This document shows positions 17,842-62,553 of a DNA stretch of 64,000 bases, in pieces; within the stretch, counting starts at the first letter, position 1, and every line of letters begins with the position of its first letter. The notes below the pieces were generated by a model that was not told where the DNA came from, searched no databases, and worked only from the letters and a program-made list of their open reading frames with translations. Made by a program: the position numbers and the translations under genes. Where the stretch lies: the NCBI GenBank assembly GCA_005223085.1, contig NJBP01000005.1, positions 2,815-66,814 on the forward strand, given 5' to 3'. This DNA comes from Candidatus Aerophobetes bacterium Ae_b3b (GTDB lineage: Bacteria > Aerophobota > Aerophobia > Aerophobales > AE-B3A).

Positions 17842-18981
17842 ATGTACGATGTTGTAGTCGTGGGAGGTGGACCCATTGGTGGCTATACGGCGTGCCAACT
17901 TGCCGACCAGGGATTTGAGGTATGTCTCTTTGAGGAAGATGATGAAGTTGGTAAGGATGTTATCTGTACCGGAGTGATAGGGACTGAGGCCTTCAGGCAT
18001 TTTAACCTTCCGCAAACCGCTATAATCCGCGGGATAAAGTCTATTATTTTTTTCTCACCCTCTTTTCTTACCTTTGATTATACTCCATCTGATACTTTTG
18101 CCTACGTGGTGGATAGAGGTATATTCGACAGCAAAATCTTAGAATGGGCCAGGGAAAAGGGAGTAGAGGTTCATTTGGGCAGGCAAGTCCGCCGGATCAA
18201 AATAAATGAGAATTTGGCTGAGGTAGAGATTGGGAATGAGGATTCTTCTCAAACTGTCCAGGCGAGGGTCATAGTGCTGGCCACAGGGATCAAGTACCAG
18301 CTTCATAAAAGCTTGGGACTAAGGGGGCCTCCGGCTTTTCTCCAGGGAGTTCAGGTGGAGACAGAGGTAAAGGATCTTTCCTGTACCGAGATCTATGTGG
18401 GTAGTGAAGTTTCCCCAGGATCTTTTGCCTGGGCCGTGCCTCTTGATCATCAAAGGGCACGCATAGGCCTTTTAACCGGAAAAAGAGGGACTTTTTATCT
18501 TAATAATTTCCTTAAAAGTAGGTTTAAAGGCAGGATTAATGAGCCGAATCCGAAAATTTTACAGAAAAGCATAGCCCATGGTCCAGTCCAGGGAAGTGTC
18601 GGTGATCGTATCTTAGCGGTGGGTGAAGCGGCGGGGCAGGTAAAGACCACTACCGGGGGTGGTATCTACTACGGCCTTTTATGCTCTGAAATAGCTGTCG
18701 AGGTTCTTAAACAATCCCTCCATAAAGGAGATTTGAGCCTCAAGCAGTTGGTTAAATATGAAAATCTATGGAAGTCGAAACTGGGAGGAGAATTCAGAGC
18801 TGGACTCTGGGCCAGAAAAATTATGGGTAAACTCAGCGACCAACAGATAGATATGATCTTTAAGTTTGTTCAAAAAAAGCCAAAGGTAAAAGAGCTTATG
18901 GAAAGGAAGGTTAAGTTCGATTATCACTCAGACCTGATTTCCTTCGGACTAAAACTTCTCAAGGGATTCATTCTGGGTTAA
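17842..18981 (+). CDS. geranylgeranyl reductase-family FAD-dependent oxidoreductase
   Basis: 'MYDVVVVGGGPIGG' dinucleotide fold and 'LAVGEAAGQVKTTTGGGIYYG'. 379 aa. Confidence 0.65.
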   Translation: MYDVVVVGGGPIGGYTACQLADQGFEVCLFEEDDEVGKDVICTGVIGTEAFRHFNLPQTAIIRGIKSIIFFSPSFLTFDYTPSDTFAYVVDRGIFDSKILEWAREKGVEVHLGRQVRRIKINENLAEVEIGNEDSSQTVQARVIVLATGIKYQLHKSLGLRGPPAFLQGVQVETEVKDLSCTEIYVGSEVSPGSFAWAVPLDHQRARIGLLTGKRGTFYLNNFLKSRFKGRINEPNPKILQKSIAHGPVQGSVGDRILAVGEAAGQVKTTTGGGIYYGLLCSEIAVEVLKQSLHKGDLSLKQLVKYENLWKSKLGGEFRAGLWARKIMGKLSDQQIDMIFKFVQKKPKVKELMERKVKFDYHSDLISFGLKLLKGFILG

Positions 18982-19100
18982 GGAAAGGCGAGGGAGCAAA
19001 TTATTTGATATTAATACCAGTTTTTTGAAAATTCTGCCTCGCTAAGAACTCTCTCACCAGAAGCTTTTTGAGATTCTCGAGGAACTCCCAGGTATAGATA

Positions 19101-19128
19101 TTGACATTTGATGTTGAATCCATATGCT
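19101..19128 (+). promoter_or_regulatory. sigma70-like promoter with repeated GATATTGA boxes upstream of vapBC
   Basis: TTGACA 19101-19106, 16-nt spacer, TATGCT 19123-19128. GATATTGA occurs twice (about 19097 and 19129), possibly an antitoxin operator. Confidence 0.35.
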
Positions 19129-19164
19129 GATATTGATCATCATACTGATAAGGAGGTTCTTATT

Positions 19165-19416
19165 ATGGCTACTCTAACTAAAAAGACTCAGATCCTTTTT
19201 TCTGAGGAGCAACTGGAACTGTTGAAAAAGATAGCTGAGGAAAAGGGTACCTCCATGGGGGCTCTAATTCGGGAAGCGGTGGAGAAGGTATATCTGAAAG
19301 AAATTAAATACCAGCGTCTGGAAATAGCAAAACGCCTTATAAATATGCAGCTTCCGGTGGATGAGTGGGAAAAAATGGAGAAAGAAATAACCGATGGAGC
19401 CAGGGAGGAGCGATGA
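19165..19416 (+). CDS. vapB: ribbon-helix-helix (CopG/VapB-like) antitoxin
   Basis: ATG at 19165 preceded by AAGGAGG. 'TQILFSEEQLELLKKIAEEKGTSMGALIREAVEKVY' is an RHH fold pattern. The stop overlaps the next start (ATGA). Confidence 0.7.
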   Translation: MATLTKKTQILFSEEQLELLKKIAEEKGTSMGALIREAVEKVYLKEIKYQRLEIAKRLINMQLPVDEWEKMEKEITDGAREER

Positions 19417-19835
19417 TATTTATTGACGCTAATATTGTGATGTACGCAGTAGGTAGGCCTCATAGGTACAAGGAGGCATGTGCCAGGATCATAGTGGATA
19501 TTTCAGAGGGCAAAATTCCTACAGTTACTGATTGCGAAATTCTGCAAGAAATTCTTTATCGGTACTGGTATATCCGTGAACTGGAAAAAGGCCTTCAGGT
19601 GTTTGAAGATTTTCAAAACTTGGTACCTAAAATCTTTCCCATCGGGAGGGAGGATTTAATTGAGAGTGCTCAGATTTTAAGAGAAAATTTCCCCGTTTCT
19701 CCAAGAGATGCCTTGCATGTGGCGGTAATGAGAAATAATGGTGTGAACAGCATCTTGAGTACTGATACACATTTTGACCTTATCCCTAGAATTCAGCGTA
19801 AAGACCCCCTGACCATGAGTGATGAATCTGTATGA
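19413..19835 (+). CDS. vapC: PIN-domain ribonuclease toxin
   Basis: 'MIFIDANIVMYA', 'SPRDALHVAVM' and 'STDTHFD' supply the conserved acidic PIN residues. Confidence 0.75.
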   Translation: MIFIDANIVMYAVGRPHRYKEACARIIVDISEGKIPTVTDCEILQEILYRYWYIRELEKGLQVFEDFQNLVPKIFPIGREDLIESAQILRENFPVSPRDALHVAVMRNNGVNSILSTDTHFDLIPRIQRKDPLTMSDESV

Positions 19836-19947
19836 TTGCTCCTTTGGTGGCCGAAGAAGAAAGCTTCAGTACTGAAGAGGATAAAAAATTCTGGGACAAT
19901 TAACCTTTTGAGCCATCAGGTGTGAGCTGGAAAAGGAGGTGTAAGCG

Positions 19948-20502
19948 ATGACCAGATTAAACATGAAGATTAAGTTCACCTATAAGGACTACAAGAGCCT
20001 ACCAGAGTCCGAAACCAAGCGCTACGAACTTATAGAGGGAGAGTTAATTATGGTTCCATCGCCAAATGAATATCACCAGCGTATCTCAGGAAGACTTGAG
20101 TTTATTCTGCGAGCATTTGTGGAGGGTAAGAACCTGGGAAGAGTTTATGATGCGCCTTTCGATGTTGTCTTTTCCAAGGAGGATGTTGTTCAGCCAGATA
20201 TTCTCTTTATCTCTAAAGCTCGTTCTAAGATTATCACGAAGGAGGAAATTCTGGGAGCACCTGATTTAGTGATAGAAATTCTTTCCCCAGCTACAGCTGA
20301 GAGAGATCGCACTTATAAGAAGACGCTTTATGCCCGACACGGCGTCCGGGAGTACTGGATTATAGATCCAGAAGAGAAAACCGTCGAAGTAATGACTCTG
20401 GGCAAGGCAGGATTTGAGTCCTCCGGGGTCTACGGGAAAATGGACACCTTGAAGTCCACCATCTTTCTTGGCTTAACCATCAACCTTTCTGATGTTTTTT
20501 GA
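19948..20502 (+). CDS. Uma2-family (DUF820) restriction-endonuclease-like protein
   Basis: 'YELIEGELIMVPSP...H', 'PDILFIS', 'PDLVIEILSPATAERDRTYKKTLYARHGVREYWIIDPEEKTVEV'. Confidence 0.8.
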   Translation: MTRLNMKIKFTYKDYKSLPESETKRYELIEGELIMVPSPNEYHQRISGRLEFILRAFVEGKNLGRVYDAPFDVVFSKEDVVQPDILFISKARSKIITKEEILGAPDLVIEILSPATAERDRTYKKTLYARHGVREYWIIDPEEKTVEVMTLGKAGFESSGVYGKMDTLKSTIFLGLTINLSDVF

Positions 20503-20559
20503 CCCCGGACATAGGACTTCGGACCTCGGACTTGAGGCAGTTTTTCATGGAGATAGAAG

Positions 20560-21286: not shown

Positions 21287-22000
21287 ATGGATTCTTTTAA
21301 GGATATGAAAAGATTCTTTTCTCTAGTTATAGCAGAAACGGTGCTTTCCCTTCTTTTCCTTATTCCGGCCTCTGGTGAAGCTGGTTTAAATCTAGGAATA
21401 TCCACTGGTTACTACCTTCCCAGTTTTGGGAGAATCAATCAACAATTGGTACGGTATTACAACAATGTCTACGGAACAAATTTGAAACTCAGAGATGGCT
21501 TGGTCTCAGGAGTGCAGGTTGAACTTGAATTTCCCTCGGGATTTAAGATCCGAGTGGAAAACTTCTCTTTCAAAGCAATTACCCAGGACTCTTACAGTGT
21601 TGATTCTGCTCCCTATCGTCAACAAGTTGACCACGACATAAAAGTAACTACTAATCCCTTTTTCATAAGTGGCATCTGGGATGTTTCCTTGGAAGAGAGT
21701 TTCTCTCTTTACCTGGGATGTGGGATTGGGATCTTTCCTACTGACGTGAGACTTTTTGGAACTACTAAATACTACTCTGGTTCTACTCTGGTCAGCCAAG
21801 AATCGTGGGCAGATTGGCAGCGTAGCGACCCTATAGGATTTCAGTATCTAGGCGGATTTCGACATACCTTTAAGGGCGGCTTAACCATATCCGGAGAAAT
21901 GAAGATTTTTGCTGTGGCAATGGCGGAGTTAGATAATCTGTCTACTAGCGTAGACTGGAACGGCCCCCTTTTTTCTCTGGTTGCTAGTTATCGATTCTAG
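21287..22000 (+). CDS. putative outer-membrane beta-barrel protein
   Basis: Signal-like N-terminus, alternating amphipathic strands, aromatic C-terminus '...LVASYRF'. No family recognised. Confidence 0.4.
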   Translation: MDSFKDMKRFFSLVIAETVLSLLFLIPASGEAGLNLGISTGYYLPSFGRINQQLVRYYNNVYGTNLKLRDGLVSGVQVELEFPSGFKIRVENFSFKAITQDSYSVDSAPYRQQVDHDIKVTTNPFFISGIWDVSLEESFSLYLGCGIGIFPTDVRLFGTTKYYSGSTLVSQESWADWQRSDPIGFQYLGGFRHTFKGGLTISGEMKIFAVAMAELDNLSTSVDWNGPLFSLVASYRF

Positions 22001-22108: not shown

Positions 22109-22672
22109 ATGAGGGTATTTATAGCGGTAGAGATTTCTGACTCCATCAGGAGCACGATAGCTCAGATTCAAGGTAAGCTTAGAGGAACAGAAGATAAAAT
22201 TAAATGGGTGGATCCATCTTTAATTCATCTTACCCTAAAGTTTTTAGGGGAAGTAAGAAAAGAGAGACTGGGAGCGGTAATTGAGGTGGCACAAAAAATA
22301 GCTCCCAAGTTTTCTCCTTTCTTTATGGAAGTTAAAAGAGTGGGTGCTTTTCCTACTTCCTCTTCTCCCAGAGTTATATGGCTGGGAGTGGATAGGGGGA
22401 GCACTAATCTGCAAAGACTAGCTAGCGAGCTGGAAAACCATCTAGCAAAGGATGGGTTTTCTAAAGAAAAGAAGAAGTGGACTCCCCACCTAACTCTCGG
22501 CAGGGTGAAATCGTTAGTAGAACCACAGAAATTAAGTGGTCTTATCTTAGGAGAAAAAGAGGTTGTGGCAGGAGAGATGGAGGTAAAGGAGATCAGCGTA
22601 ATTGAGAGTCGCCTCACTCCCAGTGGACCAATTTATACTGTTTTAGAGCGAATCAGGCTAAAGGGAATGTAG
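22109..22672 (+). CDS. thpR: RNA 2',3'-cyclic phosphodiesterase (2H family, LigT/ThpR)
   Basis: Two HxTx motifs, 'IHLTLKFLG' and 'PHLTLGR'. 187 aa. Confidence 0.85.
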   Translation: MRVFIAVEISDSIRSTIAQIQGKLRGTEDKIKWVDPSLIHLTLKFLGEVRKERLGAVIEVAQKIAPKFSPFFMEVKRVGAFPTSSSPRVIWLGVDRGSTNLQRLASELENHLAKDGFSKEKKKWTPHLTLGRVKSLVEPQKLSGLILGEKEVVAGEMEVKEISVIESRLTPSGPIYTVLERIRLKGM

Positions 22673-22758
22673 GATATAAAAAGTACAAAGTTGAGAGATC
22701 GGACCATTTGCTAAGATTCTGAGACCCTTGAGAGTAGCAGGAAAATATTAGCATTCAG

Positions 22759-22970
22759 GAGATTTATACGCGTATCGAGGGACTTTGCCCGAAGGAGCCT
22801 TATATCAGCCACCTTAACGAGTCTTCGAGTTAAGGAAGAAGAAAGACGTGATGTCTGAGGAGCGGAGCGAGGAGTTTCACGTCTTTCCCGAGACGAGAAG
22901 ACGAGCAGAAACAATCGAAAGTCGATATACAGCGACGAAGGGGAACAGTCCCGAGATATCCTTGAGGAGG
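22759..22970 (+). repeat. structured intergenic element, copy A (abuts the recA start)
   Basis: Aligns with 31961-32218. Conserved hairpin GAAAGACGTGA(22841-22851)/TCACGTCTTTC(22877-22887). The ends TATCGAGGGAC (22773-22783) and GTCCCGAGATA (22948-22958) are complementary. The 3' end supplies GAGGAGG, 6 nt before the recA ATG. Confidence 0.75.
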
Positions 22971-25838: not shown

Positions 25839-25982
25839 ATGAACTCCCGTTCAGAATCAGAAAGTGCAAGAATAGCTGTCTTTGACTCAGGTGTAGGAGG
25901 ACTTACTGTTGTTTCGGAAATAATGAAGCTTCTTCCTGGGGAGGGGAAGAGTCCCGAGATATTTCTTGATTTGGAAGGATAA
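25839..25982 (+). pseudogene. murI: glutamate racemase N-terminal fragment (truncated)
   Basis: 47 codons. 'RIAVFDSGVGGLTVVSEIMKLLPGE' matches the MurI N-terminal active-site region, after which the frame runs into the 19-nt repeat and stops. Full-length MurI is about 260 aa. Confidence 0.7.
25951..25969 (+). repeat. 19-nt dispersed motif GTCCCGAGATATTTCTTGA
   Basis: Exact copy, identical to 35049-35067. Lies at the point where murI similarity ends. Confidence 0.9.
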
Positions 25983-26001: not shown

Positions 26002-26679
26002 ATGTTTCAGGAGAAAAACTCAGTGATTTTCCAGGGAAAAGAATTTGCTTTTACCATTTTATGCAGCATCTTCATCGGGTCACTGGTGATTTCCGAGGTA
26101 TTGGCCAGTAAAATTGTTGCTCTAGGGGAGATCTACGTCCCGGCGGGAGTAGTTGCCTACGCGGTAACTTTTGCCATGACCGATACCATTGAAGAAATCT
26201 GGGGGAAGAGGTATGCCAGAGCCGTAGTGATTGGCGGACTTCTAACACTGGGTGTGGTTCTTTTTCTAATGTGGCTTGCCGTAATCTTGCCTTCTGCTCC
26301 ATTCTGGAAAGAAGAAAAAGCATTTACGCGTATTTTAGGAATAAAGGCAGGAGCAATCAGAATAACTATGGCTAGCATAGTTGCTTATTTTGTCAGCCAG
26401 TACCACGATGTCTGGGCCTTTAATTTTTGGAGACGGATCACCAGAGGACGATGGCTCTGGCTGCGTAATAACGCTTCCACCCTTGTTTCTCAGGCTATAG
26501 ATACTTCTCTGTTTATATCTTTAGCCTTCTATGGAGTTGTTCCCGTTGTGCCTTTAATTCTAGGACAGTATTTCGTTAAATTGTGTATTGCTCTCCTTGA
26601 CACTCCCCTGGTCTATCTCCTCGTCTACTGTGTGAGAGGGAAAACCACAGTGACCGAAGAGTCCCGCGGTGTTTCTTGA
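26002..26679 (+). CDS. yhhQ: queuosine-precursor transporter (YhhQ/DUF165, VUT family)
   Basis: 225-aa, 6-TM ORF with 'VPAGVVAYAVTFAMTDTIEEIWGKR' and 'NNASTLVSQAIDTSLF'. Confidence 0.7.
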   Translation: MFQEKNSVIFQGKEFAFTILCSIFIGSLVISEVLASKIVALGEIYVPAGVVAYAVTFAMTDTIEEIWGKRYARAVVIGGLLTLGVVLFLMWLAVILPSAPFWKEEKAFTRILGIKAGAIRITMASIVAYFVSQYHDVWAFNFWRRITRGRWLWLRNNASTLVSQAIDTSLFISLAFYGVVPVVPLILGQYFVKLCIALLDTPLVYLLVYCVRGKTTVTEESRGVS

Positions 26680-26745
26680 CAACTCTCCTTTTTTGTCTTA
26701 GAATTTATTTACCAATTCCGTCAAGCAGTTGCTAGGAGGCAGATT

Positions 26746-28683: not shown

Positions 28684-29892
28684 ATGAAGTTTAATCCCAT
28701 AGATGAAATTATGAAGGACTTCAAAAAAGGTAAGATGGTGATCGTGGTGGACGACAAGGATAGAGAAAATGAGGGTGATCTTATAGTCCCCGCTTCCCAA
28801 GCCACTCCTGAGGTGATAAACTTTATGGCTAAATATGGAAGAGGGTTGATTTGTCTGGCTATCACTTCTGAGAGGGCCCGGGAGTTGGGGCTTAGTCCCA
28901 TGGTAAATGAAAACACCTCTCTCAAAGGGACTCCCTTTACTGTCTCCGTGGATGCCAAGCATAATACTACTACTGGAATATCTGCCTATGACCGAGCCCG
29001 GACTGTAGGAGTTCTCATTCACCCTCAGACTAAAGAGGAAGATCTGGCAAAGCCTGGTCATGTGTTCCCATTAATTAGTAAGAATGGAGGAGTTCTCGTA
29101 AGAGCCGGTCATACCGAGGCAGCGGTAGATTTAGCCAGATTAGCGGGATTTTACCCGGCAGGGGTTCTCTGTGAGATGATGGGAGAAGATGGCAGGATGG
29201 CCAGACTTCCTGAGCTTTTATCTTTCGCTGCTCACCATGGTTTGAAGATATGTAGCCTGGCCGACATCATATCATATCGTTGGAAGAAGGAAAAACTGGT
29301 TAAAAGAGAAGTTGTTACCGATCTTCCTACTCACTACGGGAATTTTAAACTCATCGCCTACAGGACTCTCCTCGAGGATAGGATTCATCTTGCTCTGATA
29401 AAAGGAAAAGTAAGAAATAAAGAGGATGTTCTGGTGAGGGTGCATTCTCAATGCCTTACGGGAGATGTTTTCAGATCCCTTCGCTGTGACTGCGGGGATC
29501 AGCTTGAGATTGCCTTATACATGATAGGAAAGGCAAGCCATGGCGTGGTACTTTACTTAAACCAGGAGGGGCGTGGAATCGGATTATTAAATAAGCTCAA
29601 AACATATGTGCTTCAGGACAGAGGGATGGATACGGTGGAGGCAAATCAGAAGCTTGGTTTTGAGCCAGATTTACGTAGTTATGGAATTGGAGCTCAGATC
29701 CTTGCCGATTTAGGACTTCACCGGATCAGACTTTTAACCAATAACCCTCGCAAAATAGTGGGTTTAGAGGGGTATGGGTTGGAGATTAGCGAACGCACTC
29801 CTTTAGAGATAAAGCCTAACCGCGTAAACAGGGAGTATTTGAAGACCAAGCAGAAGAAACTCGGTCACCTGCTGAGTTTCGATAAGGAATAG
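28684..29892 (+). CDS. ribBA: bifunctional 3,4-dihydroxy-2-butanone-4-phosphate synthase / GTP cyclohydrolase II
   Basis: '[14 protein letters not shown]', '[16 protein letters not shown]', '[24 protein letters not shown]', '[11 protein letters not shown]'. Confidence 0.95.
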
Positions 29893-29921
29893 TATTAAGT
29901 ACTAAGCATTAAGTACTAAGT

Positions 29922-30464
29922 GGTAGCCGCAGGCTTCAGCCTGCGTAGAGAAATGATAAACAGAAATGTTAGAGAAAAGAAACACCGGTTACCTCTGCAC
30001 TGCTACCTGGGGCAGGTAAGGGTAACCTTCACTCTTTGTATTGAAGACAAAAGACCCTTTTTTGTGGAAAAGGCAATAGTGGATAAGTTCATAGAAATCC
30101 TAAGAGAAGCGAAGGAAAAGTATAATTGTAAAAATTGGGTATATATGTTCATGCCAGATCATTTGCACGTCGTTAATGAAGGTATTTCAGACAGTTCTGA
30201 TTTATGGAAAATGATGAATTTTTTCAAACAAAAGACTGGTTTTTGGCTATCGCGGAATAAAAAAGGAACGAAATGGCAAAAAGATTTTTATGACCATGTT
30301 CATCGGAAAGAAGATGATTTAAAGAAGCACATAATCTACATTCTGGATAATCCAGTAAGAAAAGGGTTAGTCTCTGATTGGAAAGATTATCCTTCCAAAG
30401 GGTCACTGGATTTTAGCTTGGAAGATATTATTTCATGAAACGCAGGATAAATCCTGCGGCTACC
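29922..30464 (+). mobile_element. REP-RAYT unit (tyrosine transposase gene bracketed by inverted REP hairpins)
   Basis: REP-L is GGTAGCCGCAGGCTTCAGCCTGCG (29922-29945). REP-R is CGCAGGATAAATCCTGCGGCTACC (30441-30464), the reverse complement of the same head plus hairpin. The unit sits between ribBA and ribH. Confidence 0.8.
29953..30438 (+). CDS. REP-associated tyrosine transposase (IS200/IS605 TnpA-like Y1 HUH enzyme)
   Basis: HUH motif 'MPDHLHVV' and C-terminal '[32 protein letters not shown]' (catalytic Tyr region). ATG at 29953 is preferred to GTG at 29920, which lies inside REP-L. Confidence 0.75.
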
Positions 30465-30515
30465 AATTCAAAAAAGGCAAATATTTTTGACAATACCGCC
30501 GAATGGGAGGAAGTT

Positions 30516-31888: not shown

Positions 31889-31960
31889 TGGTCAGGGTTT
31901 AATGAAAAACCAAGAGAGTTACCTAAGGCCTTGATTTCTTGATCAATAGTTTCTTTTCTT

Positions 31961-32218
31961 GAGATTTAGGAATTTATACACTTGTCGAAAGACATTTTCT
32001 GGTCCGAAGGAGGCGCAGCCGGAGCCTTATAGGAGCTACCTTAACGAAGCTTCGAGTTGAGGAAAAAGAAAGACGTGATGTCTGAGGAGCAGAGCGACGA
32101 GTTTCACGTCTTTCCCGGCCGTTAAGGTGCCGCAGGCAACGAGAAGCTGAGCAGAAATAATAAAAGGCTACTATACAGCGACGGAAGAAAATTGTCCTGA
32201 GACATTTTTTTGAGGAGT
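31961..32218 (+). repeat. structured intergenic element, copy B (abuts the mrdA start)
   Basis: Same architecture as 22759-22970. Hairpin GAAAGACGTGA(32068-32078)/TCACGTCTTTC(32104-32114). Ends TGTCGAAAGAC (31983-31993) and GTCCTGAGACA (32194-32204). Carries extra sequence around 32117-32140. Confidence 0.75.
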
Positions 32219-33990: not shown

Positions 33991-35047
33991 TTCTCGACCA
34001 TACGATTGGCTACTTCTATTGGCGGTCTTAGGTCTTTCTCTGGGTGGACTTTTCCACCTTTATACGATTTCTTTTGTTCATCAGTCTTATTATTTTTTTC
34101 GCCAGATAGCCTGGGTGGGGATAGGATTGGGACTGCTAGTTCTATTTTCTTATCTTCGGATCAGTCTATGGGAGAAGGTAGCTCATCTTTTTTATTTGGC
34201 AATTTTTATTACCCTCCTTTTGGTATTATTTAGAGGAGAAGGTGCACATGGTGCACAGAGGTGGTTCAGGCTGGGGACATTTAGTTTCCAGCCCTCTGAG
34301 TTTGCTAAACTCAGCCTCATCATTGTTTTAGCTAAGTTGCTGGCTGCCAAGGATAATATAGGATGGAGACAAATAGGTCTATCTTTTTGTTTTACTTTCC
34401 CTTTCCTTATCTTAGTCGCCCTGCAACCTGATCTGGGAAGTGCTCTCATTTTGCTTCCACTTTGGCTGGGGATGCTCTTTTTGGCCGGTGTCTCTCCGAG
34501 AAAGCTTCTTACCATTCTGGGAATAGGGGCATCTTCCTTTCCATTTTTTTATTTATTGTTACGTCCCTATCAAAAGATGCGTATTCTGACCTTTTTGAAT
34601 CCCGGTCGAGATCCTCTTGGCACAGGGTGGGCCGTCCTACAGTCTAAGGTTGCTCTAGGTTCAGGAAAATTAGTAGGCAAAGGTATTGGAGGAGCTCTTC
34701 ATACCCAACTCAGTTTTCTTCCTCAACCCTTTACGGATTTTGTATTCGCCAGCATTGGTGAAGAGTGGGGATTTGTTGGAACAGGGATTTTTATAGGACT
34801 GTATTTTGTCATTATAACTAGAGGCATGAAGATAGCTAGACAATCTACCAATGGTTTTACCAGGCTGGTAAGTGGTGGTCTGATCATTCTATTATTTTTC
34901 CAGGTTTTTATTACCGTGGGAATGACGATAGGGATCATGCCTGTTACCGGTATGCCTTTACCTCTGGTGAGCTATGGGGGAAGTTCTATTATAATGTTTT
35001 TTCTGGGGATGGGATTATTGCTCAGTATGAAGAGATTCGGGGAATAG
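33980..35047 (+). CDS. rodA: SEDS-family peptidoglycan glycosyltransferase RodA
   Basis: 'FSFQPSEFAKL', 'QPDLGSALI', 'LPQPFTDFVFASIGEEWGF', 'MPLPLVSYGGSS'. ATG at 33980 overlaps the mrdA stop. Confidence 0.9.
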   Translation: MYPDSRPYDWLLLLAVLGLSLGGLFHLYTISFVHQSYYFFRQIAWVGIGLGLLVLFSYLRISLWEKVAHLFYLAIFITLLLVLFRGEGAHGAQRWFRLGTFSFQPSEFAKLSLIIVLAKLLAAKDNIGWRQIGLSFCFTFPFLILVALQPDLGSALILLPLWLGMLFLAGVSPRKLLTILGIGASSFPFFYLLLRPYQKMRILTFLNPGRDPLGTGWAVLQSKVALGSGKLVGKGIGGALHTQLSFLPQPFTDFVFASIGEEWGFVGTGIFIGLYFVIITRGMKIARQSTNGFTRLVSGGLIILLFFQVFITVGMTIGIMPVTGMPLPLVSYGGSSIIMFFLGMGLLLSMKRFGE

Positions 35048-35048
35048 A

Positions 35049-35067
35049 GTCCCGAGATATTTCTTGA
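35049..35067 (+). repeat. 19-nt dispersed motif GTCCCGAGATATTTCTTGA
   Basis: Exact copy starting 2 nt after the rodA stop. Its TTGA forms part of the TTGACA -35 box. Confidence 0.9.
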
Positions 35068-35091
35068 CAGTTTTATATCCTTCTGTATATT
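35064..35091 (+). promoter_or_regulatory. sigma70-like promoter (TTGACA-16-TATATT)
   Basis: TTGACA 35064-35069 and TATATT 35086-35091, about 190 nt upstream of the leuC start. Confidence 0.45.
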
Positions 35092-35186
35092 GAATGCACC
35101 TGAGGTATAGAATTTCAATAATTTCTCTGAATTGTTATCAAGTAAACCTTGGCAATCGAGATATCAGAAAAAAAAGAGGGGAGCAG

Positions 35187-35281
35187 GCTCGACTTGCTCG
35201 AGCGAAGCGAGAGTCGGCTTTGCCGATCGAGCCGTCGAGGGGGGATATTTCCCCCCTCGAGTATCTTGGTGGGGGATGGGA
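35187..35281 (+). promoter_or_regulatory. hairpin-rich 5' leader of leuC with a possible SD-sequestering switch
   Basis: Hairpins GCTCGA/TCGAGC (35187-35203) and TCGGC-TTT-GCCGA (about 35213-35227). A further 11-bp stem TCGAGGGGGGA/TCCCCCCTCGA (35235-35260, loop TATT). The C6 tract could alternatively pair with the G-rich SD at 35268-35280. Confidence 0.4.
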
Positions 35282-36562: not shown

Positions 36563-36688
36563 AAGAGTGAAGAGAATGATGCCGGTAGCAGAAAGAATCA
36601 GAAGAATTCCTCCTTTGAGAAAAGAATGCAAGAAGCGGTGGAACGAATTGGGTCAGTATTAACCTGATACCCACAGGAAAAATTCGTC

Positions 36689-36717
36689 TTGACAGTTGGG
36701 AGAGGTTTTGTTAAAAT
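36689..36717 (+). promoter_or_regulatory. sigma70-like promoter (TTGACA-17-TAAAAT)
   Basis: TTGACA 36689-36694 and TAAAAT 36712-36717. The downstream transcript would include MITE copy 2 before the coiled-coil gene at 36977. Confidence 0.45.
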
Positions 36718-36763: not shown

Positions 36764-36882
36764 TGTAAATGCTCAGTAAACGCCGTGTCACATTGAATTT
36801 TCAGGGTAGCCGCACCCTTTAGGGTGCGCAGGCTCTGAGCCTTGCGACTACCAAAAATGACGGGGTTCACTGAATACTTACG
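36764..36882. repeat. MITE-like palindromic element with REP-doublet core (copy 2)
   Basis: Arms near-identical to 2468-2610. REPs at 36805-36828 and 36827-36852. Flanked by direct TGGGCG (36758-36763, 36883-36888). Confidence 0.75.
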
Positions 36883-36976
36883 TGGGCGTTAGGTAAAAAG
36901 CTGATGATTTGTTGGGAAAGGAGGTGAAAGTAAGGTTTTTTCAAAAATACTTGACGAACGGAGGAGGTTCTGAGAA

Positions 36977-46831: not shown

Positions 46832-46863
46832 GGGGTACCTCGAAGCCCGAGAAATCGAGGGGG

Positions 46864-46891
46864 TTGACAAAGCATAAATAGGCCGTATAAT
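46864..46891 (+). promoter_or_regulatory. near-consensus sigma70 promoter (TTGACA-16-TATAAT)
   Basis: TTGACA 46864-46869 and TATAAT 46886-46891. The predicted TSS falls about 7 nt downstream, at the GTG that opens the 46899 ORF. Confidence 0.5.
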
Positions 46892-50397: not shown

Positions 50398-50415
50398 GAC
50401 TATGACTTCGTTAGA

Positions 50416-50434
50416 GTCCCGAGATACTTCTTGA
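50416..50434 (+). repeat. 19-nt dispersed motif (GTCCCGAGATACTTCTTGA, 1 mismatch)
   Basis: Intergenic, between two ABC operons. Inverted partner at 57310-57328. Confidence 0.85.
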
Positions 50435-50531
50435 AGAAATTTTGTCCATTAAAAGGAGGTGGTGAATGGGAGAGAGATCAAGATGAGAGGAGATGAGAGT
50501 AGTAGAGATCGTCTAAAAAAGGAGTGTTAAA

Positions 50532-55942: not shown

Positions 55943-57238
55943 ATGAGAGGAGATAAAGATCTAAAAGGTAAAGGAGAAAAGGTAATCTCAGGACTAAAGG
56001 GAAATTGTATCGTTGCTCAATCGGGTGGCCCCACCGCAGTCATTAATGAGAGTCTATGTGGAGTTATCCAGGAAGCTCAAAGACACGAAGAAATAGAGGA
56101 AATATACGGGGCCAGAGATGGAATTTTGGGTCTACTTAAGGGAGAATTAATCAATTTAAGAAAAGAGAAGAGCTCTACCATTGATGGCTTGAAAACCGCT
56201 CCCGGGGCGGCATTAGGAAGCTGTAGATACCGCTTGAAGTCATGGAGCGAATCCGGTAAGGATTTTGAAAAGATTATCGAGATTTGCAGGAGATACCATC
56301 TTCGGTATTTTTTCTACATCGGGGGTAATGATTCTATGGATACTGCCAATAAGGTAGATGAGGCAGCTAAGAGAATGAACTACCAGCTGGTGGTCATTGG
56401 AATTCCCAAGACAGTAGATAATGATCTTGTCTTTACCGATCACTGCCCGGGTTTTGGTAGCGCAGCAAAATATTTAGCAATTTCAGTAATGGAAGCGGGA
56501 CGTCACCTAGAAAGCCTTTACGATTCGGAGTCGGTAATCATACTGGAGACGTTAGGAAGAAATACCGGTTGGCTTGCTGGATCCTGTGCGCTGGCTAAGC
56601 GGTCCCCAGAGGATGCTCCTCACTTGATTTATTTTCCAGAAATACCCTTTTCTCTGGATAAGTTTATCAAGGATGCACGCGAGGTTTATCACAAGATTGG
56701 CGGGGTCTTTATTGTGGTAAGTGAGGGTCTTCGAGATGAGAAGGGAAATTACGTTTGTGCCAGGAAGGACAGGATATCTACCGATGCTTTTGGTCATCCG
56801 GAGCTAGAAGGAATTTCCAATTACTTAAAGGAAGTGATAGAATCTCAACTCAAACTAAAGACCAGGACTATCAAACCAGATGTCTGTCAGCAGAGCGCCG
56901 TGCATTTTGCCTCCAAGGTCGACATGGAAGAAGCATATTTGGTGGGAAGGCAAGCTGTTAAGTCGGCACTGGAGGGTAAAAGTGGCTACATGATTACCAT
57001 AAGGAGAGAAAAAGGAAGAGTTTATAAGCGAAGAACTTCTAGAGCTAAGCTCTCTCTAGTTGCTAACATGGAAAAGAGAGTTCCCCCAGGATGGATAAAC
57101 AGAAAGGGAAATTTTGTGACTAAGGAATTCATCGACTACGTGCGTCCTCTTATTCAAGGAGAGGTCGATGTCCCTGTTCAGAAGGGGCTTCCTTACTATC
57201 CTAGATTAGAGAAAAGGAAAATTCTGGCTAAGAAATGA
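55943..57238 (+). CDS. phosphofructokinase-family enzyme, probably PPi-dependent type
   Basis: 'AQSGGPTAVIN', 'IGGNDSMDTA', 'IGIPKTVDNDL'. The Lys in PKTxDND is the residue associated with PPi use. 431 aa. Confidence 0.7.
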   Translation: MRGDKDLKGKGEKVISGLKGNCIVAQSGGPTAVINESLCGVIQEAQRHEEIEEIYGARDGILGLLKGELINLRKEKSSTIDGLKTAPGAALGSCRYRLKSWSESGKDFEKIIEICRRYHLRYFFYIGGNDSMDTANKVDEAAKRMNYQLVVIGIPKTVDNDLVFTDHCPGFGSAAKYLAISVMEAGRHLESLYDSESVIILETLGRNTGWLAGSCALAKRSPEDAPHLIYFPEIPFSLDKFIKDAREVYHKIGGVFIVVSEGLRDEKGNYVCARKDRISTDAFGHPELEGISNYLKEVIESQLKLKTRTIKPDVCQQSAVHFASKVDMEEAYLVGRQAVKSALEGKSGYMITIRREKGRVYKRRTSRAKLSLVANMEKRVPPGWINRKGNFVTKEFIDYVRPLIQGEVDVPVQKGLPYYPRLEKRKILAKK

Positions 57239-57309
57239 AGGGATCGTTTCTCGCGGTACCCAAAGTGTAAGTACTCATCCCTAATTTGTAGTGGTTACCC
57301 CAAGGGTTT

Positions 57310-57328
57310 TCAAGAAATATCTCGGGAC
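57310..57328 (-). repeat. 19-nt dispersed motif, reverse orientation (exact)
   Basis: The plus strand reads TCAAGAAATATCTCGGGAC. Directly abuts the TTG start of the PfkB-family gene. Confidence 0.9.
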
Positions 57329-58279
57329 TTGAATATGCTGGATTTAATAGTGGTGGGAAATTTATCCTATGATGCTATATCGACGCCCAACGGCCGTCGA
57401 AAAGCGGCTTTTGGTGGTTCGGTTGCCTATGCCAGTCTTTGTGCCAGCTACCTTGGTGAGCGAGTGGGTGTGGTAGCTAAGGCTGGCAAAGATTATCACC
57501 TTAAAGATTTGGATAGACTTGTGCGTCGGGACATCGATATTGAGGGAGTAAAGATAGTTTCCCTCGGTCTCACCACTAGATTTGAGAATGTGTATGATGA
57601 GAATGAAAGTAGAAAACAGAGATTGTTAGGCAGAGGCGATCCCATATTTCCTGAGGATGTACCGGATGGGTATCTGAATGTGGATAAGGTATGTTTTTTG
57701 CCAATCTTTCAGGAGTTACCTTGCCAAACGGTGGAAAAGCTTACCAAAAATGGAAAATGTGTCTGCCTGGATCCCCAAGGTTATATCAGGACAACCGGCA
57801 AGGCCGGAGAAATAGTACTGACCGATTGGAAAGAAAAAGAAAAGATTCTTAGAAAAGTGGATATCCTAAGCACAAGTGCTCCGGAACTAAATGCTGTTGC
57901 AGCCACAGCTGATGCTTTAAGTGCCGCTGAAAAACTGAGCAGTCTTGGTCCAGAAATAGTATTTATTACTAGAGAAGGGGGATCAAAGAGTTCTTTGCTC
58001 TATTTTGATGAGAGGTTGGAGGAGGTGCCGATTATCCCTCCCCAGGTTTTTGTGGATCCCGGAGGGGTAGGGGATGCTTCAGCGGTTGCTTTTCTGGTGG
58101 AATATGAAAAAACACACGATCCCTGGTGGTCAGCTTTCTTTGCCTCAGCAGCCTCCTCTTTTGTTATGGAAGCCTACGGAGCCGATAGTTTTGGGAACAG
58201 AGACCAAATTTTAACCAGAATAAAGATTTTTGTCAGTCATAATCGACAGTACCGGGGTTTATGCCAGGGTTTTCTCTAA
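57329..58279 (+). CDS. PfkB/ribokinase-family carbohydrate kinase
   Basis: 'DLIVVGNLSYDAI', 'GGSVAYAS', 'DPGGVGDA'. The start is either TTG 57329 or ATG 57335. Confidence 0.7.
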   Translation: MNMLDLIVVGNLSYDAISTPNGRRKAAFGGSVAYASLCASYLGERVGVVAKAGKDYHLKDLDRLVRRDIDIEGVKIVSLGLTTRFENVYDENESRKQRLLGRGDPIFPEDVPDGYLNVDKVCFLPIFQELPCQTVEKLTKNGKCVCLDPQGYIRTTGKAGEIVLTDWKEKEKILRKVDILSTSAPELNAVAATADALSAAEKLSSLGPEIVFITREGGSKSSLLYFDERLEEVPIIPPQVFVDPGGVGDASAVAFLVEYEKTHDPWWSAFFASAASSFVMEAYGADSFGNRDQILTRIKIFVSHNRQYRGLCQGFL

Positions 58280-58352
58280 TCTTATAAAAAGTAGACTCTG
58301 CTTGACTTGGTGAACATGAAACAAGATGGCAGGGTAATAATGGCAAGGGAAG

Positions 58353-58526
58353 AGCTAAAAATAAGGCCAGAGGGAGGTGAAAAGCAGGTAGGTCGTTAGC
58401 TGGGCAGAAGGAAAGCTTCCCAGAAAGAGGAAGCCGTTAAATAATTAAATTTCCTCAGAGGAAGTTTCAGAAAATAGCTCAGCTATCTCAGCAAAAAGAT
58501 GGGAAAACAAAAAGGAGAGAGTTAAT
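58353..58526 (+). promoter_or_regulatory. conserved leader, copy Y (upstream of the Fe3+-type ABC operon)
   Basis: AGCTAAAAATAAGGCCAG, AGCTGGGCAGAAGGAAAGCTT, CGTTAAATAATTAAATTTC and AAAAAGGAG SD, collinear with 47351-47538. Confidence 0.6.
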
Positions 58527-59561
58527 ATGTTTAGACGATTGCTGGTATTCAGTTTAACGGCAGCCCTACTTTTTGGTCTGGCTGCCACAGGATTTACGGC
58601 CAAAAAGACTCTCCATGTGTATACAGCTTTTGACGTAGACGAGGCTAATATATATATAGAAGCCTTCAAGAAATCGTATCCCGACATAGACGTTAAATGG
58701 GTGCGGATGTCTGCGGGAGAGGTTTTGGCCCGAGTAAGGGCGGAGGCAAAGAATCCTCAGGCGAGTATCTGGTTTGCCGGTCCCAGCACTTCCCACATAG
58801 CTGCCGCGGGACATGACCTACTGGACCCCTATACCGAATCCTTGGCCTGGCAGTACCTTCCCGCTGACTTCAAGGACCCCGAGGGGCGTTGGACTGGCTT
58901 TTACACCGGATTCATCGGCTTCGCTACTAACAAAGAATTTCTCAAAAAGCATGGTGTGGAAGCTCCTACCTCATGGAATGACCTTCTTAAACCGGTGTTC
59001 AAAAAAGAAATCTCCAAAGCCTATCCCTATACTTCAGGTACCGCTTACACCACCTTAATTTCACAGCTTCAAGCTATAGGCCCCAAAAAGCTCGGTTGGG
59101 ACCAGGAAGATGAGGAATATATCAAGAAACTGAGCGCGCAGATACACCACTACACCAAGGCGGGCTCAGCCTGTGTAACCGAAGCAGGGTTGGGTGAGGT
59201 GGCAGTGGGTATTGCCTTCTCTCATGATATCGTGGCCAAGGGTATCGCCAAAGGATATCCGGTGGTGATGAGTTTTCCTAAAGAGGGAACAGGTTACGAG
59301 ATCGGGGCTGTTTCCTTGATCAAAGGCGGGCCTGAACCGCAACTGGCCAGGGTATTCTTTGATTGGCTCATGAGTGCTGAGGCTCAAAGTCTATTTAAGA
59401 AATGGAACAGAGTTCCTTTGAACCCGCAAGCGGAGCTCGCCGAAGGCCTGGTAACAGCGGCCCAGGTCCCGGTAATCGAAGGCTTCGGGGGACAAATCAC
59501 CTGGTATGGTCAGCGCAAGGACGAGATTATCGACCGATGGAGACAAATCACCGGTCGATAA
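58527..59561 (+). CDS. ABC substrate-binding protein, Fe3+/AfuA-FbpA-like (SBP_bac_6-like)
   Basis: Signal peptide, 'LHVYTAFDVDEANIYIEAFKKSYPDIDVKWVRMSAGEV', 'IWFAGPS'. Confidence 0.65.
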   Translation: MFRRLLVFSLTAALLFGLAATGFTAKKTLHVYTAFDVDEANIYIEAFKKSYPDIDVKWVRMSAGEVLARVRAEAKNPQASIWFAGPSTSHIAAAGHDLLDPYTESLAWQYLPADFKDPEGRWTGFYTGFIGFATNKEFLKKHGVEAPTSWNDLLKPVFKKEISKAYPYTSGTAYTTLISQLQAIGPKKLGWDQEDEEYIKKLSAQIHHYTKAGSACVTEAGLGEVAVGIAFSHDIVAKGIAKGYPVVMSFPKEGTGYEIGAVSLIKGGPEPQLARVFFDWLMSAEAQSLFKKWNRVPLNPQAELAEGLVTAAQVPVIEGFGGQITWYGQRKDEIIDRWRQITGR

Positions 59562-59646
59562 TGGAGACTTGGTTCAAACCCAACCGGAGAGGGGAGGATC
59601 TTCTCCTCTCCGGTCCTCTTAATGTCGAGGTCATCGAGGAGATCTA

Positions 59647-61332
59647 TTGAAAATTACTATCTACTTAAGAGAAAGTAGGAACGAAATCAAGAGGTTAATT
59701 AAAGATCCGGTTTTACTTATTAGCATTGTTTTCATCTCCGGACTTCTTTTCCTTTTCATTGCATTTCCACTAATAAAGGTTTTCCAGTACAGCCTCTGGC
59801 CGCGTGGGGAGTTCTCTGCCAAGTATTTTGTGGAATTCTTTCAAAGATCATATCGATGGCGGCCCCTGATTAACAGTTTGACCGTGGGAGCCCTGGTGGC
59901 TCTTCTGGGAACTGTTATTGGCTTCATCTACGCCTATGGGATCACTCGTACAGACATACCATTTAAACGGTTTTTCCGAACCGTAGCCATCTTTCCCATT
60001 ATCTCCCCTCCCTTTCTTATCGCGCTGGCCGCTATTTTTGTTTTTGGAAATCATGGGGTTATAACCGATCTCTTTAACTTAGATTGGGATATATACGGCT
60101 TGGACGGGCTGGTTATGACTGAGACTCTGGCCTACTTCCCCCTCGCCTTTATGGTCCTGGAAGGGGTTCTTTCCAAGGTGGATCCAGCTATGGAAGAGGC
60201 TGCCCTTGACCTGGGGGCATCCAAGCTGAGGACTTTTTTTACGGTAACCCTGCCCCTGGCCACTCCCGGAATAGCCACTGCCCTGCTTTTAGTCTTTATT
60301 AGATCCTTAGAAGATTTTGGTAATCCCATTGTAATTCAGGGTGATTTTCCGGTGCTTACCGTGGAGGCTTTTTTGGCTATTACGGGAATGTACAATATGC
60401 CCTTAGGGGCGACTCTGGCCATCTTTTTACTGGTGCCGACAATGATAATCTTTGTGGTGCAAAAATATTGGGTTTCCCGAAAGTCGTACGTGACTGTGAC
60501 CGGCCGACCATCGGGAGCTGGACTTCTAAGCACAGAAAAACACGCCAAATACCCTGTGATGGTAGCTATGATATTCCTAAGCTCATGTGTACTTCTTTTT
60601 TATGGGGTGGTCTTGTACGGTTCCTTTACCAGACTATGGGGAGTGGACAACAGCCTAACCCTGGAAAACTACCGGTATGTCTTTACAGTAGGCGGTCAAT
60701 ACATTAGCGATACTCTCACCATCGCCCTGATAGCAACGCCTATAGGCGGAATATTAGCCATGATAATAGCCTATTTGGTGGCAAGAAAAAAATTCTTGGG
60801 CAAAGGAGTTATGGATTTTGTCTCCATGCTCAATTTTGCCGTACCGGGGGTGGTGGTGGGCATCGCTTACATATTGGCTTTCAACACCCGCCCTCTACAG
60901 CTTACCGGAACCGCCCTGATTATAATATTGGTCTTTATCTTCCGGAGAATGCCGGTGGGGATAAGAGATGGAATAGCTCAACTGCAACAGATAGATCCGG
61001 GTATTGATGAGGCCTCTACCGACCTGGGAGCTGGTATGTTCAGAACATTTGGGAGGATCACCTTGCCCCTGATTGCTCCCGCCTTTCTCTCGGGTATGGT
61101 TTATATGTTTGTAAGGTGTATGACGGCAATAAGTGCAGTTATCTTTGTTGTTTCTGCTGATTGGCAGCTTCTTACGGTGGCCCTACTTCACGAAGTGGAC
61201 AATGCTGATCTTGCCCAGGCTGCCGCTTACGGATATGTAATCATTGTTATTGTATTAACTGCAATAATTGGGCTGAGACTGGTAGTTGGGGGTTTGTTAG
61301 GCAGAAGAACTACTTTGTTCCAGCCAGAATAA
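59647..61332 (+). CDS. two-domain ABC permease (FbpB/AfuB-like)
   Basis: 561 aa, 12 TM segments, two EAA loops ('MEEAALDLGASKLRTFFTVTLP' and 'IDEASTDLGAGMFRTFGRITLP'). TTG start. Confidence 0.8.
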   Translation: MKITIYLRESRNEIKRLIKDPVLLISIVFISGLLFLFIAFPLIKVFQYSLWPRGEFSAKYFVEFFQRSYRWRPLINSLTVGALVALLGTVIGFIYAYGITRTDIPFKRFFRTVAIFPIISPPFLIALAAIFVFGNHGVITDLFNLDWDIYGLDGLVMTETLAYFPLAFMVLEGVLSKVDPAMEEAALDLGASKLRTFFTVTLPLATPGIATALLLVFIRSLEDFGNPIVIQGDFPVLTVEAFLAITGMYNMPLGATLAIFLLVPTMIIFVVQKYWVSRKSYVTVTGRPSGAGLLSTEKHAKYPVMVAMIFLSSCVLLFYGVVLYGSFTRLWGVDNSLTLENYRYVFTVGGQYISDTLTIALIATPIGGILAMIIAYLVARKKFLGKGVMDFVSMLNFAVPGVVVGIAYILAFNTRPLQLTGTALIIILVFIFRRMPVGIRDGIAQLQQIDPGIDEASTDLGAGMFRTFGRITLPLIAPAFLSGMVYMFVRCMTAISAVIFVVSADWQLLTVALLHEVDNADLAQAAAYGYVIIVIVLTAIIGLRLVVGGLLGRRTTLFQPE

Positions 61333-61347
61333 ACTTGGGAGATACCA

Positions 61348-62433: not shown

Positions 62434-62553
62434 TTGTTTATAAGCTGATGAACTCGACATGAAGATATTCCTCTACATGGAAAACTTTTGGAAATGATCG
62501 AGAAGGCGTTGGAAAAGATGAAGAACAAGAAATAAACGAAAGGGAGGCTATAA

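Follow-up and report, generated by a model that had tools for sequence, protein, structure and literature searches.

Several transposons insert beside a short fixed word: IS608 inserts 3' of TTAC, and ISDra2 inserts 3' of TTGAT. A comparable rule applies to the IS91 family, where the target 5'-CTTG or GTTC lies beside one constant end, no duplication is made, and a related tetranucleotide is found at the other end; in this family, one-ended transposition co-mobilises adjacent DNA (PMC13181058). A second group of described repeats, comprising the Correia elements of Neisseria (CREE/NEMIS), ERIC, REPIN and the "putative mobile promoters" (PMC2649163, PMC3575422), consists of short, gene-less, multi-copy, structured intergenic sequences, and so does the repeat described here; in Correia elements, the termini are inverted repeats, TA is duplicated, and promoters arise from the ends of the element itself. 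The present analysis concerns a 19-nucleotide (nt) motif, GTCCCGAGATATTTCTTGA, that is dispersed over 64,000 nt of contig NJBP01000005.1 (forward strand, positions 2,815 to 66,814; assembly GCA_005223085.1) of Candidatus Aerophobetes bacterium Ae_b3b; this whole stretch is called the window below, and position 1 is its first letter. The 19-mer is probably the right (3') terminus of a non-coding, structured and mobile repeat family of Aerophobetes-like bacteria, a family that rides on host promoters and whose solo copies are remnants of longer elements; a puzzling dispersed motif would thus be explained as the end of one repeat family.

The 19-mer as the end of a larger element

Exact copies of the 19-mer are located at 25951-25969 and 35049-35067 on the plus strand and at 57310-57328 on the minus strand, and a copy with one mismatch (T12>C, the C12 variant) at 50416-50434 on the plus strand; all four had been listed in a first-pass annotation made from the sequence alone, and a motif scan of the window bears them out. 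The scan also found a three-mismatch copy at 26661-26679 (+) that had been overlooked, for a total of five matches with three mismatches or fewer against 0.04 expected; none of 100 shuffles reached five. The annotation was also right in recognizing diverged copies at the 3' termini of the elements at recA and mrdA (22948-22965, GTCCCGAGATATCCTTGA; 32194-32213, GTCCTGAGACATTTTTTTGA). The core common to the copies, AGAGTCCCGAGATAYTTCTTGA (repeat family D10), is slightly longer than the 19-mer. A proposed looser relative of the motif ahead of the promoter at 46864 was rejected as a family member; the segment in question, 46838-46891, is single copy in all DNA compared and has only short words in common with the motif. 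This segment forms a hairpin, CCTCGA(N11)TCGAGG, directly ahead of a near-consensus TTGACA-17-TATAAT promoter, likewise a layout of a hairpin followed by a -35 box.

For the survey of relatives, contigs of one genome per species and metagenome contigs were scanned with the motif (T or C at base 12), and loci were fetched by the exact motif; the window's own genome was not among the scanned genomes. Far from being confined to the window, the motif was recovered in 86 copies in 79 loci from six related metagenome-assembled genomes (MAGs) and from sediment metagenomes. Each of the six MAGs, among them three with the label Ca. Aerophobetes and one with the label Clostridia, contains the motif several times; CAZIXA01, a species other than that of the window, has three plus-strand copies and one minus-strand copy on a single contig. 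Outside this clade, one match was found inside conserved coding sequence of a second Clostridia-labelled MAG, together with eight unrelated single matches, where about nine chance matches are expected; the metagenome scan contributed 66 further stretches, 54 of them from this clade. Orthologous relatives, given here by L numbers, include Ca. Aerophobetes CSMAG_2676 (L013, about 90% identical), b3.sp2_bin.56 (L017, about 87%), and several metagenome contigs with 95-98% identity to the window.

The 19-mer is part of a larger element with the full layout 5'-CTTGA TAGTAC CAGGAAAGTATTAGCATTCAGGAGATTTATACGCG TATCGAGGGAC...interior helices...ACAGCGACGRAGGGGAAGA GTCCCGAGATATTT CTTGA-3'. In the long form of about 240 nt, which has a closing-helix core of about 190 nt and several interior variants, ...GATATACAGCGACGRAGGGGAAGA stands directly 5' of the motif; in the short hairpin form of about 85 nt, this position is taken by ...AGAAGATTTATACGCGTATCGAGGGGAAGA; in the solo form, unrelated sequence begins 0-13 nt 5' of the motif, and the stump is 19-45 nt long. 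The short form corresponds to the long form without its interior, with one constant junction (TATCGAGGG|GAAGAGTCCC), and the same promoter bears different classes (long, short or solo) in different genomes. The interior of the long element occurs in at least five variants (L013/L035/L087; L036/L082/L095/L099; L044/L067; L005/L028/L052; L093) that are built of short tandem words, for example CACGTTTCAC, CGCTATAC, ACGATTCAC, TAACGACT and GAACTATGAAC; every variant ends in the same ACAGCGACGRAGGGGAAGA and 19-mer, and one promoter can hold different variants in different genomes.

The consensus fold of 12 full copies (RNAalifold) places motif bases 1-5 and 8-12 in a predicted closing helix, paired with GTATC..GGGAC. 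Interior helices show compensatory changes, from UA to GC in three sequences at columns 55-220 and from GC to UA in three sequences at columns 114-156; the plus (gene-sense) strand is favoured by G-U pairs and by folding energy (z -2.8 vs. -0.7). Within the 5' module, TCAGGAGA can pair with TTTCTTGA (motif bases 12-19) at a mean of 7.05 of 8 positions, compared to a null value of 3.6. Element RNA is present in metatranscriptome contigs, where it continues through the motif into the downstream flank. A search of the whole window against Rfam at the gathering threshold matched tmRNA only, and the element region had no Rfam match at E<=10.

The outer limits of the element are marked by the word CTTGA. 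An empty allele (L028) reads ..GAAGCATCTTGA|CAAAAG (in short, ..CATCTTGA|CAAAAG) and its filled counterpart (L007) reads ..GAAACTTCTTGA|TTTCTCAGG..(85 nt)..GAGATACTTCTTGA|CCGCAG (in short, ..CTTCTTGA|TTTCT..GATACTTCTTGA|CCGCAG); this pair indicates that the element is bounded by CTTGA direct repeats and that the empty site has one CTTGA. Across the family, TTGA is found 5-7 nt before the 5' module (CAGGAAAGTATTAGC), separated from it by about 6 nt (TAGTAC), in 18 of 28 copies (background 5.5%), and the complete word CTTGA in 15 of 28 (background 1.4%); most others have TTTA, TTAA or TTAG. The pattern fits a target duplication of 5-9 nt and, equally, an element that ends in CTTGA and joins after CTTGA; right copies agree with the consensus of the family also in cases in which the empty site has GTGA, TTAA or TTCA, which favours an element-borne end. 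The complementary segments are placed asymmetrically, at 36-55 nt from the 5' end and 0-14 nt from the 3' end, and the termini (TAGTACCAGG and GAGATATTT) are not inverted repeats; for this reason, a classic miniature inverted-repeat transposable element (MITE) with terminal inverted repeats and target site duplication was rejected. A permutation test of flank and end similarity (p=0.006) is not relied on, since four of its 17 pairs were spurious internal matches.

Gain, loss and decay in the window

The repeat is multi-copy and non-coding, and it is present or absent between close relatives, in the window at five sites. Upstream of recA, a 297-nt insertion (22668..22965, +) contains a full long element, with the left CTTGA at 22727-22731, the 5' module at 22738-22772, the 5' strand of the closing helix at 22773-22790 and the 3' end GGGGAACAGTCCCGAGATATCCTTGA at 22940-22965, immediately ahead of the ribosome-binding site and ATG (22977) of recA. 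L013 and L063 lack the insertion, as does an allele of about half depth that co-occurs in runs X1, X6 and X7; without it, the site reads GGGAA|ATTAAGGAGGATAG. At mrdA, a diverged and 5'-truncated long element (31929..32213, +), preceded by CTTGA-containing repeats (31929-31962), has two counterparts without the element, one of which joins 31874 + CA + 32204 (ATTTTTTTGAGGAG) while the other has 63 nt instead of 315 nt. A search for empty sites by comparative genomics, as the first-pass annotation had suggested, thus yielded empty alleles at recA, at mrdA and in L028; its option of a recombination or transposition footprint is supported by the presence and absence of the element between relatives of 95-97% identity. 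Depth over the element interior is about 50x single-copy depth in run X1, a value that sums all related organisms in the sample.

The solo copies of the window have fuller counterparts in relatives. The copy at 25938..25969 (+), 19-mer 25951-25969, has an element remnant, GGGGAGGGGAAGA, just 5' of the 19-mer, and is located 32 nt 5' of the start (26002) of a Vut_1-family gene, with no good -10 box downstream; its ortholog in L013 has kept more of the element (..ATATACAGCGACGAAAGGGAAGA plus the 19-mer), and the sequence farther upstream is unalignable. The copy at 35036..35091 (+), 19-mer 35049-35067, begins one base past the rodA stop and forms, together with the rodA end, a terminator-like hairpin (35036-35056) that is followed by ATATTTCTT; the promoter TTGACA(35064)-16-TATATT(35086-35091), which the annotation had already recognized and which is confirmed here, is predicted to drive an aconitase-family gene. 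In L017, the equivalent promoter bears a complete long element, and the difference between the two genomes is bordered by AGA. The C12 copy (50410..50436, +; 19-mer 50416-50434) is placed between an ABC ATPase gene and an unknown gene of 459 amino acids (aa), and has no -10 box at proper spacing; L071, with flanks 97% identical, has 91 additional nt at this site that constitute a short-form element, and AGAG borders the indel on both sides. The inverted copy at 57310..57328 (-) faces the 3' end of a PFK gene, its -10 box (TACAAA) is weak, and it lies in a strain-variable 5.3-kb segment (57237-62526), 72 nt from the left edge; in other strains, motif bases 1-2 are changed and the flank is replaced. 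This copy had been described as abutting the start of the PfkB-family gene; the ATG at 57335 is a likelier start than the abutting TTG.

Two further sites show decay of the motif next to a predicted promoter. The copy at 26652..26704 (+; GTCCCGCGGTGTTTCTTGA at 26661-26679) forms the final six codons and the stop of the Vut_1-family gene and is not intergenic, a correction to the first-pass statement that all copies are; its TTGA starts the -35 box of TTGACA(26676)-17-TAGAAT(26699-26704), which is predicted to serve a 2-oxoacid dehydrogenase E2 gene. At this site, 18 nt are missing from L013 (GACCGAAGAGTCCCGCGG), yet TATTGCTTGACA-17-TAGAAT (TTGACA-17-TAGAAT) is retained; L069 has a 3-nt deletion. 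The second site (36663..36717, +) consists of a decayed remnant at 36663-36694 (CCTGATACCCACAGGAAAAATTCGT, a degenerate 29 nt) ahead of TTGACA(36689)-17-TAAAAT (36689-36717); the 96% relatives L089 and L069 have a perfect 45-nt 3' block that includes the 19-mer, L045 has a different deletion, and the outgroup L017 has a diverged block with 4/19 mismatches. The perfect block in L089, the wreck in its 96% relative and the diverged outgroup copy, taken together, suggest re-copying by gene conversion or by re-insertion at the same CTTGA. The genes around the window copies are functionally unrelated, and include a Germane-domain gene and the Vut_1 transporter, E2, rodA and the aconitase-family gene, the ABC ATPase and the unknown gene, and the PFK and PfkB-family genes.

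Beyond the window, L093 keeps the 5' half of the element where L016 has only AAGA and the 19-mer, and at one further site solos still show a decayed element 5' end. Homology 5' of the motif, anchored at its 3' side, is graded from 0, 1, 3-7, 9-11, 17-28 and 45 nt up to full length. On the basis of the fuller counterparts and this graded series, the solos of the window are best read as stumps whose 5' part was deleted; the solo termini considered in the first-pass annotation are thereby supported, as the same promoters bear a full or short element in relatives (35049 in L017, 50416 in L071, 25951 in L013). The presumed direction runs from long to short to solo; deletions would remove the 5' parts of long and short forms, at two sites of the window between AGA or AGAG microhomologies.

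The 5' leader of the aconitase-family gene contains an inserted 173-nt repeat (35099-35271) right after the motif-borne promoter. L045, L069, L089 and one contig of run X13 lack this repeat, which is 94% identical to a copy in L019 and holds a palindrome, CTCGAGGGGGGATATTTCCCCCCTCGAG, that is also nested in some long elements (L088, L090, L098). Between the motif at 50416 and the 459-aa gene, a strong ribosome-binding site (AAAGGAGGTGGTGA) is followed by a six-codon mini-ORF (open reading frame; MGERSR*) at 50452-50486, which is kept in L053 and partly in L071, and may encode a leader peptide. The segment 57237-62526 contains four genes, a PfkB-family kinase and three others; it is absent from L053 and is a minority allele in run X1 (depth 23 vs. 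240). The strain-variable segment 21236-22054 holds a 237-aa ORF without Pfam match (21287-22000) that is absent from L013 and L063, and a 1.6-kb segment (18930-20540), with a PIN-domain gene and part of a Uma2-family gene that runs past 20540, is replaced by 41 nt in L063.

Promoter register and competing explanations

The position of the motif relative to promoters was tested on 48 non-redundant sites. The pattern TAnnnT follows TTGA after 16-18 nt at 29 of these sites (60%), compared to 4.4% at control offsets; the base after TTGA is C at 33 of 48, and a co-oriented ORF start is found 20-190 nt downstream at about 33 of 48. Between 22 and 37.5 kb of the window, three of the four best promoter matches (11/12), those at 26676, 35064 and 36689, all on the plus strand, coincide with motif or former motif sites. 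Predicted sigma-70 -35/-10 pairs accompany the motif in the family overall and, within the window, at 26676 and 35064, and not at 22962, 32210, 50431 and 57313. The earlier statement that some copies have no -10 box agrees with this result, as none is credible at 22948, 32194, 50416 and 57310; the recA and mrdA copies adjoin the ribosome-binding site (TTGA|GGAGG).

The spacers and -10 boxes are non-homologous between sites. At 36689, TTGACA-17-TAAAAT is intact in the window, L045 and L017, where the motif is missing or decayed, and is also kept in L089 and L069; L057 has CCTTGACT-16-TATAAT without the element where three other genomes have long copies. Since the predicted promoters persist without the motif, and their spacers and -10 boxes differ from site to site, the element appears to land on host promoters and not to bring them. 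The first-pass view that a plain promoter role is insufficient was right and can be refined: TTGA is the genuine start of a -35 box at about 60% of sites, on host promoters that, judging from these sequence comparisons, exist without the motif. CTTGA would then be both the joining word and the core of the sigma-70 -35 box (CTTGA|C), and the element's own TTGA would re-form the -35 box after insertion; insertions inside genes would be lost, and the survivors would be left in register on pre-existing promoters, pointing to the downstream gene. Perfect conservation of the motif as proof of selection was dropped, as the loci were fetched by exact motif and copies recovered by way of the adjacent box include variants (TCCTTGA, -TTCTTGA, TTCCAGA).

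Several observations weigh against the interpretation of the 19-mer as a mobile element end with decaying solos. Some empty sites resemble the last 8-13 nt of the motif (AGATTTTTTGTGA in L016, ATTTTTTTGA at mrdA), and the C12 variant recurs in the left-flank copy in 4/4 informative cases vs. 2/12 (hand count, approximately p=0.008); both suggest that part of the 19-mer could be a duplicated or recombined target. On the 5' side of the left CTTGA, the recA insertion is longer by about 57 nt, and the junction word differs from TTGA in the empty sites at recA (TTAA) and in L016 (GTGA). The closing helix is invariant, so that covariation provides no test of it. Exact solos are kept at 19/19 between species with 71-83% flank identity (25951/L013, 35049/L017, L024/L032), which is more than neutral decay would leave and indicates that some selection or re-copying acts on them; similarly, 86 of 87 ATAYTTCTTGA words have GTCCCGAG just 5', so that almost no copies are cut inside the 19-mer, a count of low power given the exact-motif fetch. 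Finally, a search of 630 kb of loci and of viral contigs, which did not extend to the window's own genome, yielded no transposase or recombinase with such ends; ORF-bearing or tandem copies of the element were found neither in the loci nor in the viral contigs.

The conservation of exact solos would be accommodated if the 19-mer were a cis-regulatory DNA site, either an UP-like module or an activator or repressor site near -42, which was spread by the element and is now selected at solos. Where the -10 box is correctly spaced, the 19-mer covers positions from about -51 to -32; few copies are cut within the motif, and conservation of the closing helix is higher in its 3' strand than in the 5' strand. 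Yet at 36663-36694 the motif is decayed in the window and in L045, and 4/19 off in L017, with -35 and -10 boxes intact; the copies at 26661 and 57310 vary between strains, the motif has no dyad symmetry, and about 40% of copies have no -10 box. The cross-species identity is, moreover, partly an artefact of exact-motif fetching, and the downstream genes (transporter, E2, aconitase-family, recA, mrdA, unknown) share no function; a regulon reading was rejected on account of this incoherence. A regulator may bind the motif, although nothing requires it, and on this evidence selection for such a site is unlikely to be what the 19-mer represents. The motif-like empty sites invite a different reversal of the argument, in which host promoters would already have contained the 19-mer, or its last 8-13 nt, as an attachment site for site-specific or guide-directed recombination, and the solos would be unoccupied or vacated targets. 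Empty sites do carry CTTGA or close variants, sometimes T-rich upstream (L028 CATCTTGA, L016 AGATTTTTTGTGA, mrdA ATTTTTTTGA, L057 CCTTGAC), one site holds different interior variants by genome (L036/L099 vs. L088), and the 5' module is complementary to TTTCTTGA; however, GTCCCGAGATA occurs in no empty site examined, the solos keep extra element bases on their 5' side (GGGGAAGA, AGA) or remnants of the element 5' end, and the outgroup has the long form where the window has solos, all of which makes an ancestral attachment site very improbable.

A role at the RNA level would place the closing helix or a local hairpin, followed by AUAUUUCUU, as an intrinsic terminator or 3'-end stabiliser of the upstream gene that insulates the downstream promoter. 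The consensus scan does give a hairpin of terminator type at 35036-35056 with ATATTTCTTG behind it; on the gene-sense strand, folding of the element is better than that of shuffled sequence; elements are found between co-directional genes, and element RNA occurs in metatranscriptome contigs. However, those contigs continue past the motif into the flank downstream, the U-rich tract is short and the stem beside it is rich in A-U pairs, and a hairpin partner is missing for the solos at 50416 and 57310. At recA and mrdA, where the copy adjoins the ribosome-binding site, a terminator would shut off essential genes, and the chance that transcript ends are the function of the 19-mer is slim indeed. 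The mobile repeat that rides on host promoters and leaves solo remnants thus continues to be the probable identity of the family.

If so, many housekeeping promoters (E2, aconitase-family) of a little-studied, uncultured phylum have their -35 box occupied by a mobile repeat, which is also found at sites directly before recA and mrdA; at one and the same promoter, near-identical strains differ in having the 240-nt structure, the 85-nt hairpin, the 19-nt stump or none of these, and such turnover readily supplies regulatory variation. Should CTTGA-specific joining be true, it would be a natural case of site choice that coincides with a core promoter element, and could lead to a new HUH-type or guided recombinase. 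In practice, the motif can serve as an annotation marker for promoters and strain-variable sites in these genomes.

Relation to known mobile repeats

The best-fitting candidate for the mobilising activity is an HUH-type single-strand mechanism, IS200/IS605- or IS91-like, that would cut and join after CTTGA; asymmetric subterminal pairing, single orientation, a strand-specific fold and a fixed junction word are consistent with it. A circle or tandem junction, were the element excised, would read GAGATATTTCTTGA|TAGTACCAGGAAAG. A more specific version is rather doubtful: a promoter-riding single-strand transposon that joins after CTTGA and chooses its site through its own TCAGGAGA, complementary to TTTCTTGA, so that the right end re-creates the -35 box and a structured module of about 200 nt is placed before live promoters. 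This nucleic-acid-guided, -35-specific transposon would leave the 19-45-nt stumps by abortive or prematurely ended copying from the constant right end, and not by later deletions.

The family does not belong to the repetitive extragenic palindromic (REP) or REPIN sequences that are linked to a REP-associated tyrosine transposase (RAYT): the only Y1 gene of the window (29920-30438) is flanked by GGTAGCCGCAGGC-type REPs that are unrelated to the element. This IS200-like, RAYT-type Y1_Tnp gene is situated within 29892-30498 between inverted REP hairpins of that type, and its insertion is polymorphic, with 42 nt instead in L069 and the joint 29885>30499 in runs X1 and X6. The window also has two copies of a MITE-like REP-doublet repeat (2470-2611 and 36765-36883) whose head also occurs in the REPs that flank the RAYT gene; L069 and L089 lack the 36765-36878 copy, where depth is 25-30x single copy.

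With the palindrome-associated transposable elements (PATEs) derived from IS200/IS605, and Y1 HUH elements in general, the family appears to share insertion in one orientation beside a fixed 4-5-nt word that abuts one end, no clear longer duplication, and a strand-specific structure that tolerates G-T pairs; its copies in the window are on the lagging-strand template strand as judged from GC skew, and the left junction cTTGAT|AGTAC is likewise IS200/IS605-like. In contrast to IS200/IS605, no cognate TnpA was found, the helix links both ends instead of forming separate end hairpins, and precise peel-and-paste excision would leave no solo stumps. One-ended transposition as in IS91 could explain the 57 extra nt at recA and the copies with one common end and variable length; the likeness is limited to the CTTG(A) word and this end pattern, whereas no Y2 transposase gene or ORF-bearing copy was seen, the ends are dissimilar, and the element measures about 240 nt.

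The resemblance to Correia-type repeats extends to strain-variable presence, gene-adjacent location, contributed promoter hexamers and co-transcription. The 26-bp terminal inverted repeat, TA duplication, integration host factor (IHF) site and Neisseria host that define Correia elements are not found here; ends and boundaries differ, the host is an Aerophobetes-like MAG, and the two have no sequence similarity. Instead of creating promoters with its own ends, the Aerophobetes element has subterminal, asymmetric inverted segments and CTTGA direct-repeat boundaries, and supplies only the start of a -35 box to promoters that exist without it. The family is a real feature and ordinary in kind, an undescribed variant among promoter-associated intergenic repeats that is set apart by its ends, its CTTGA boundaries and its placement at the -35 box.

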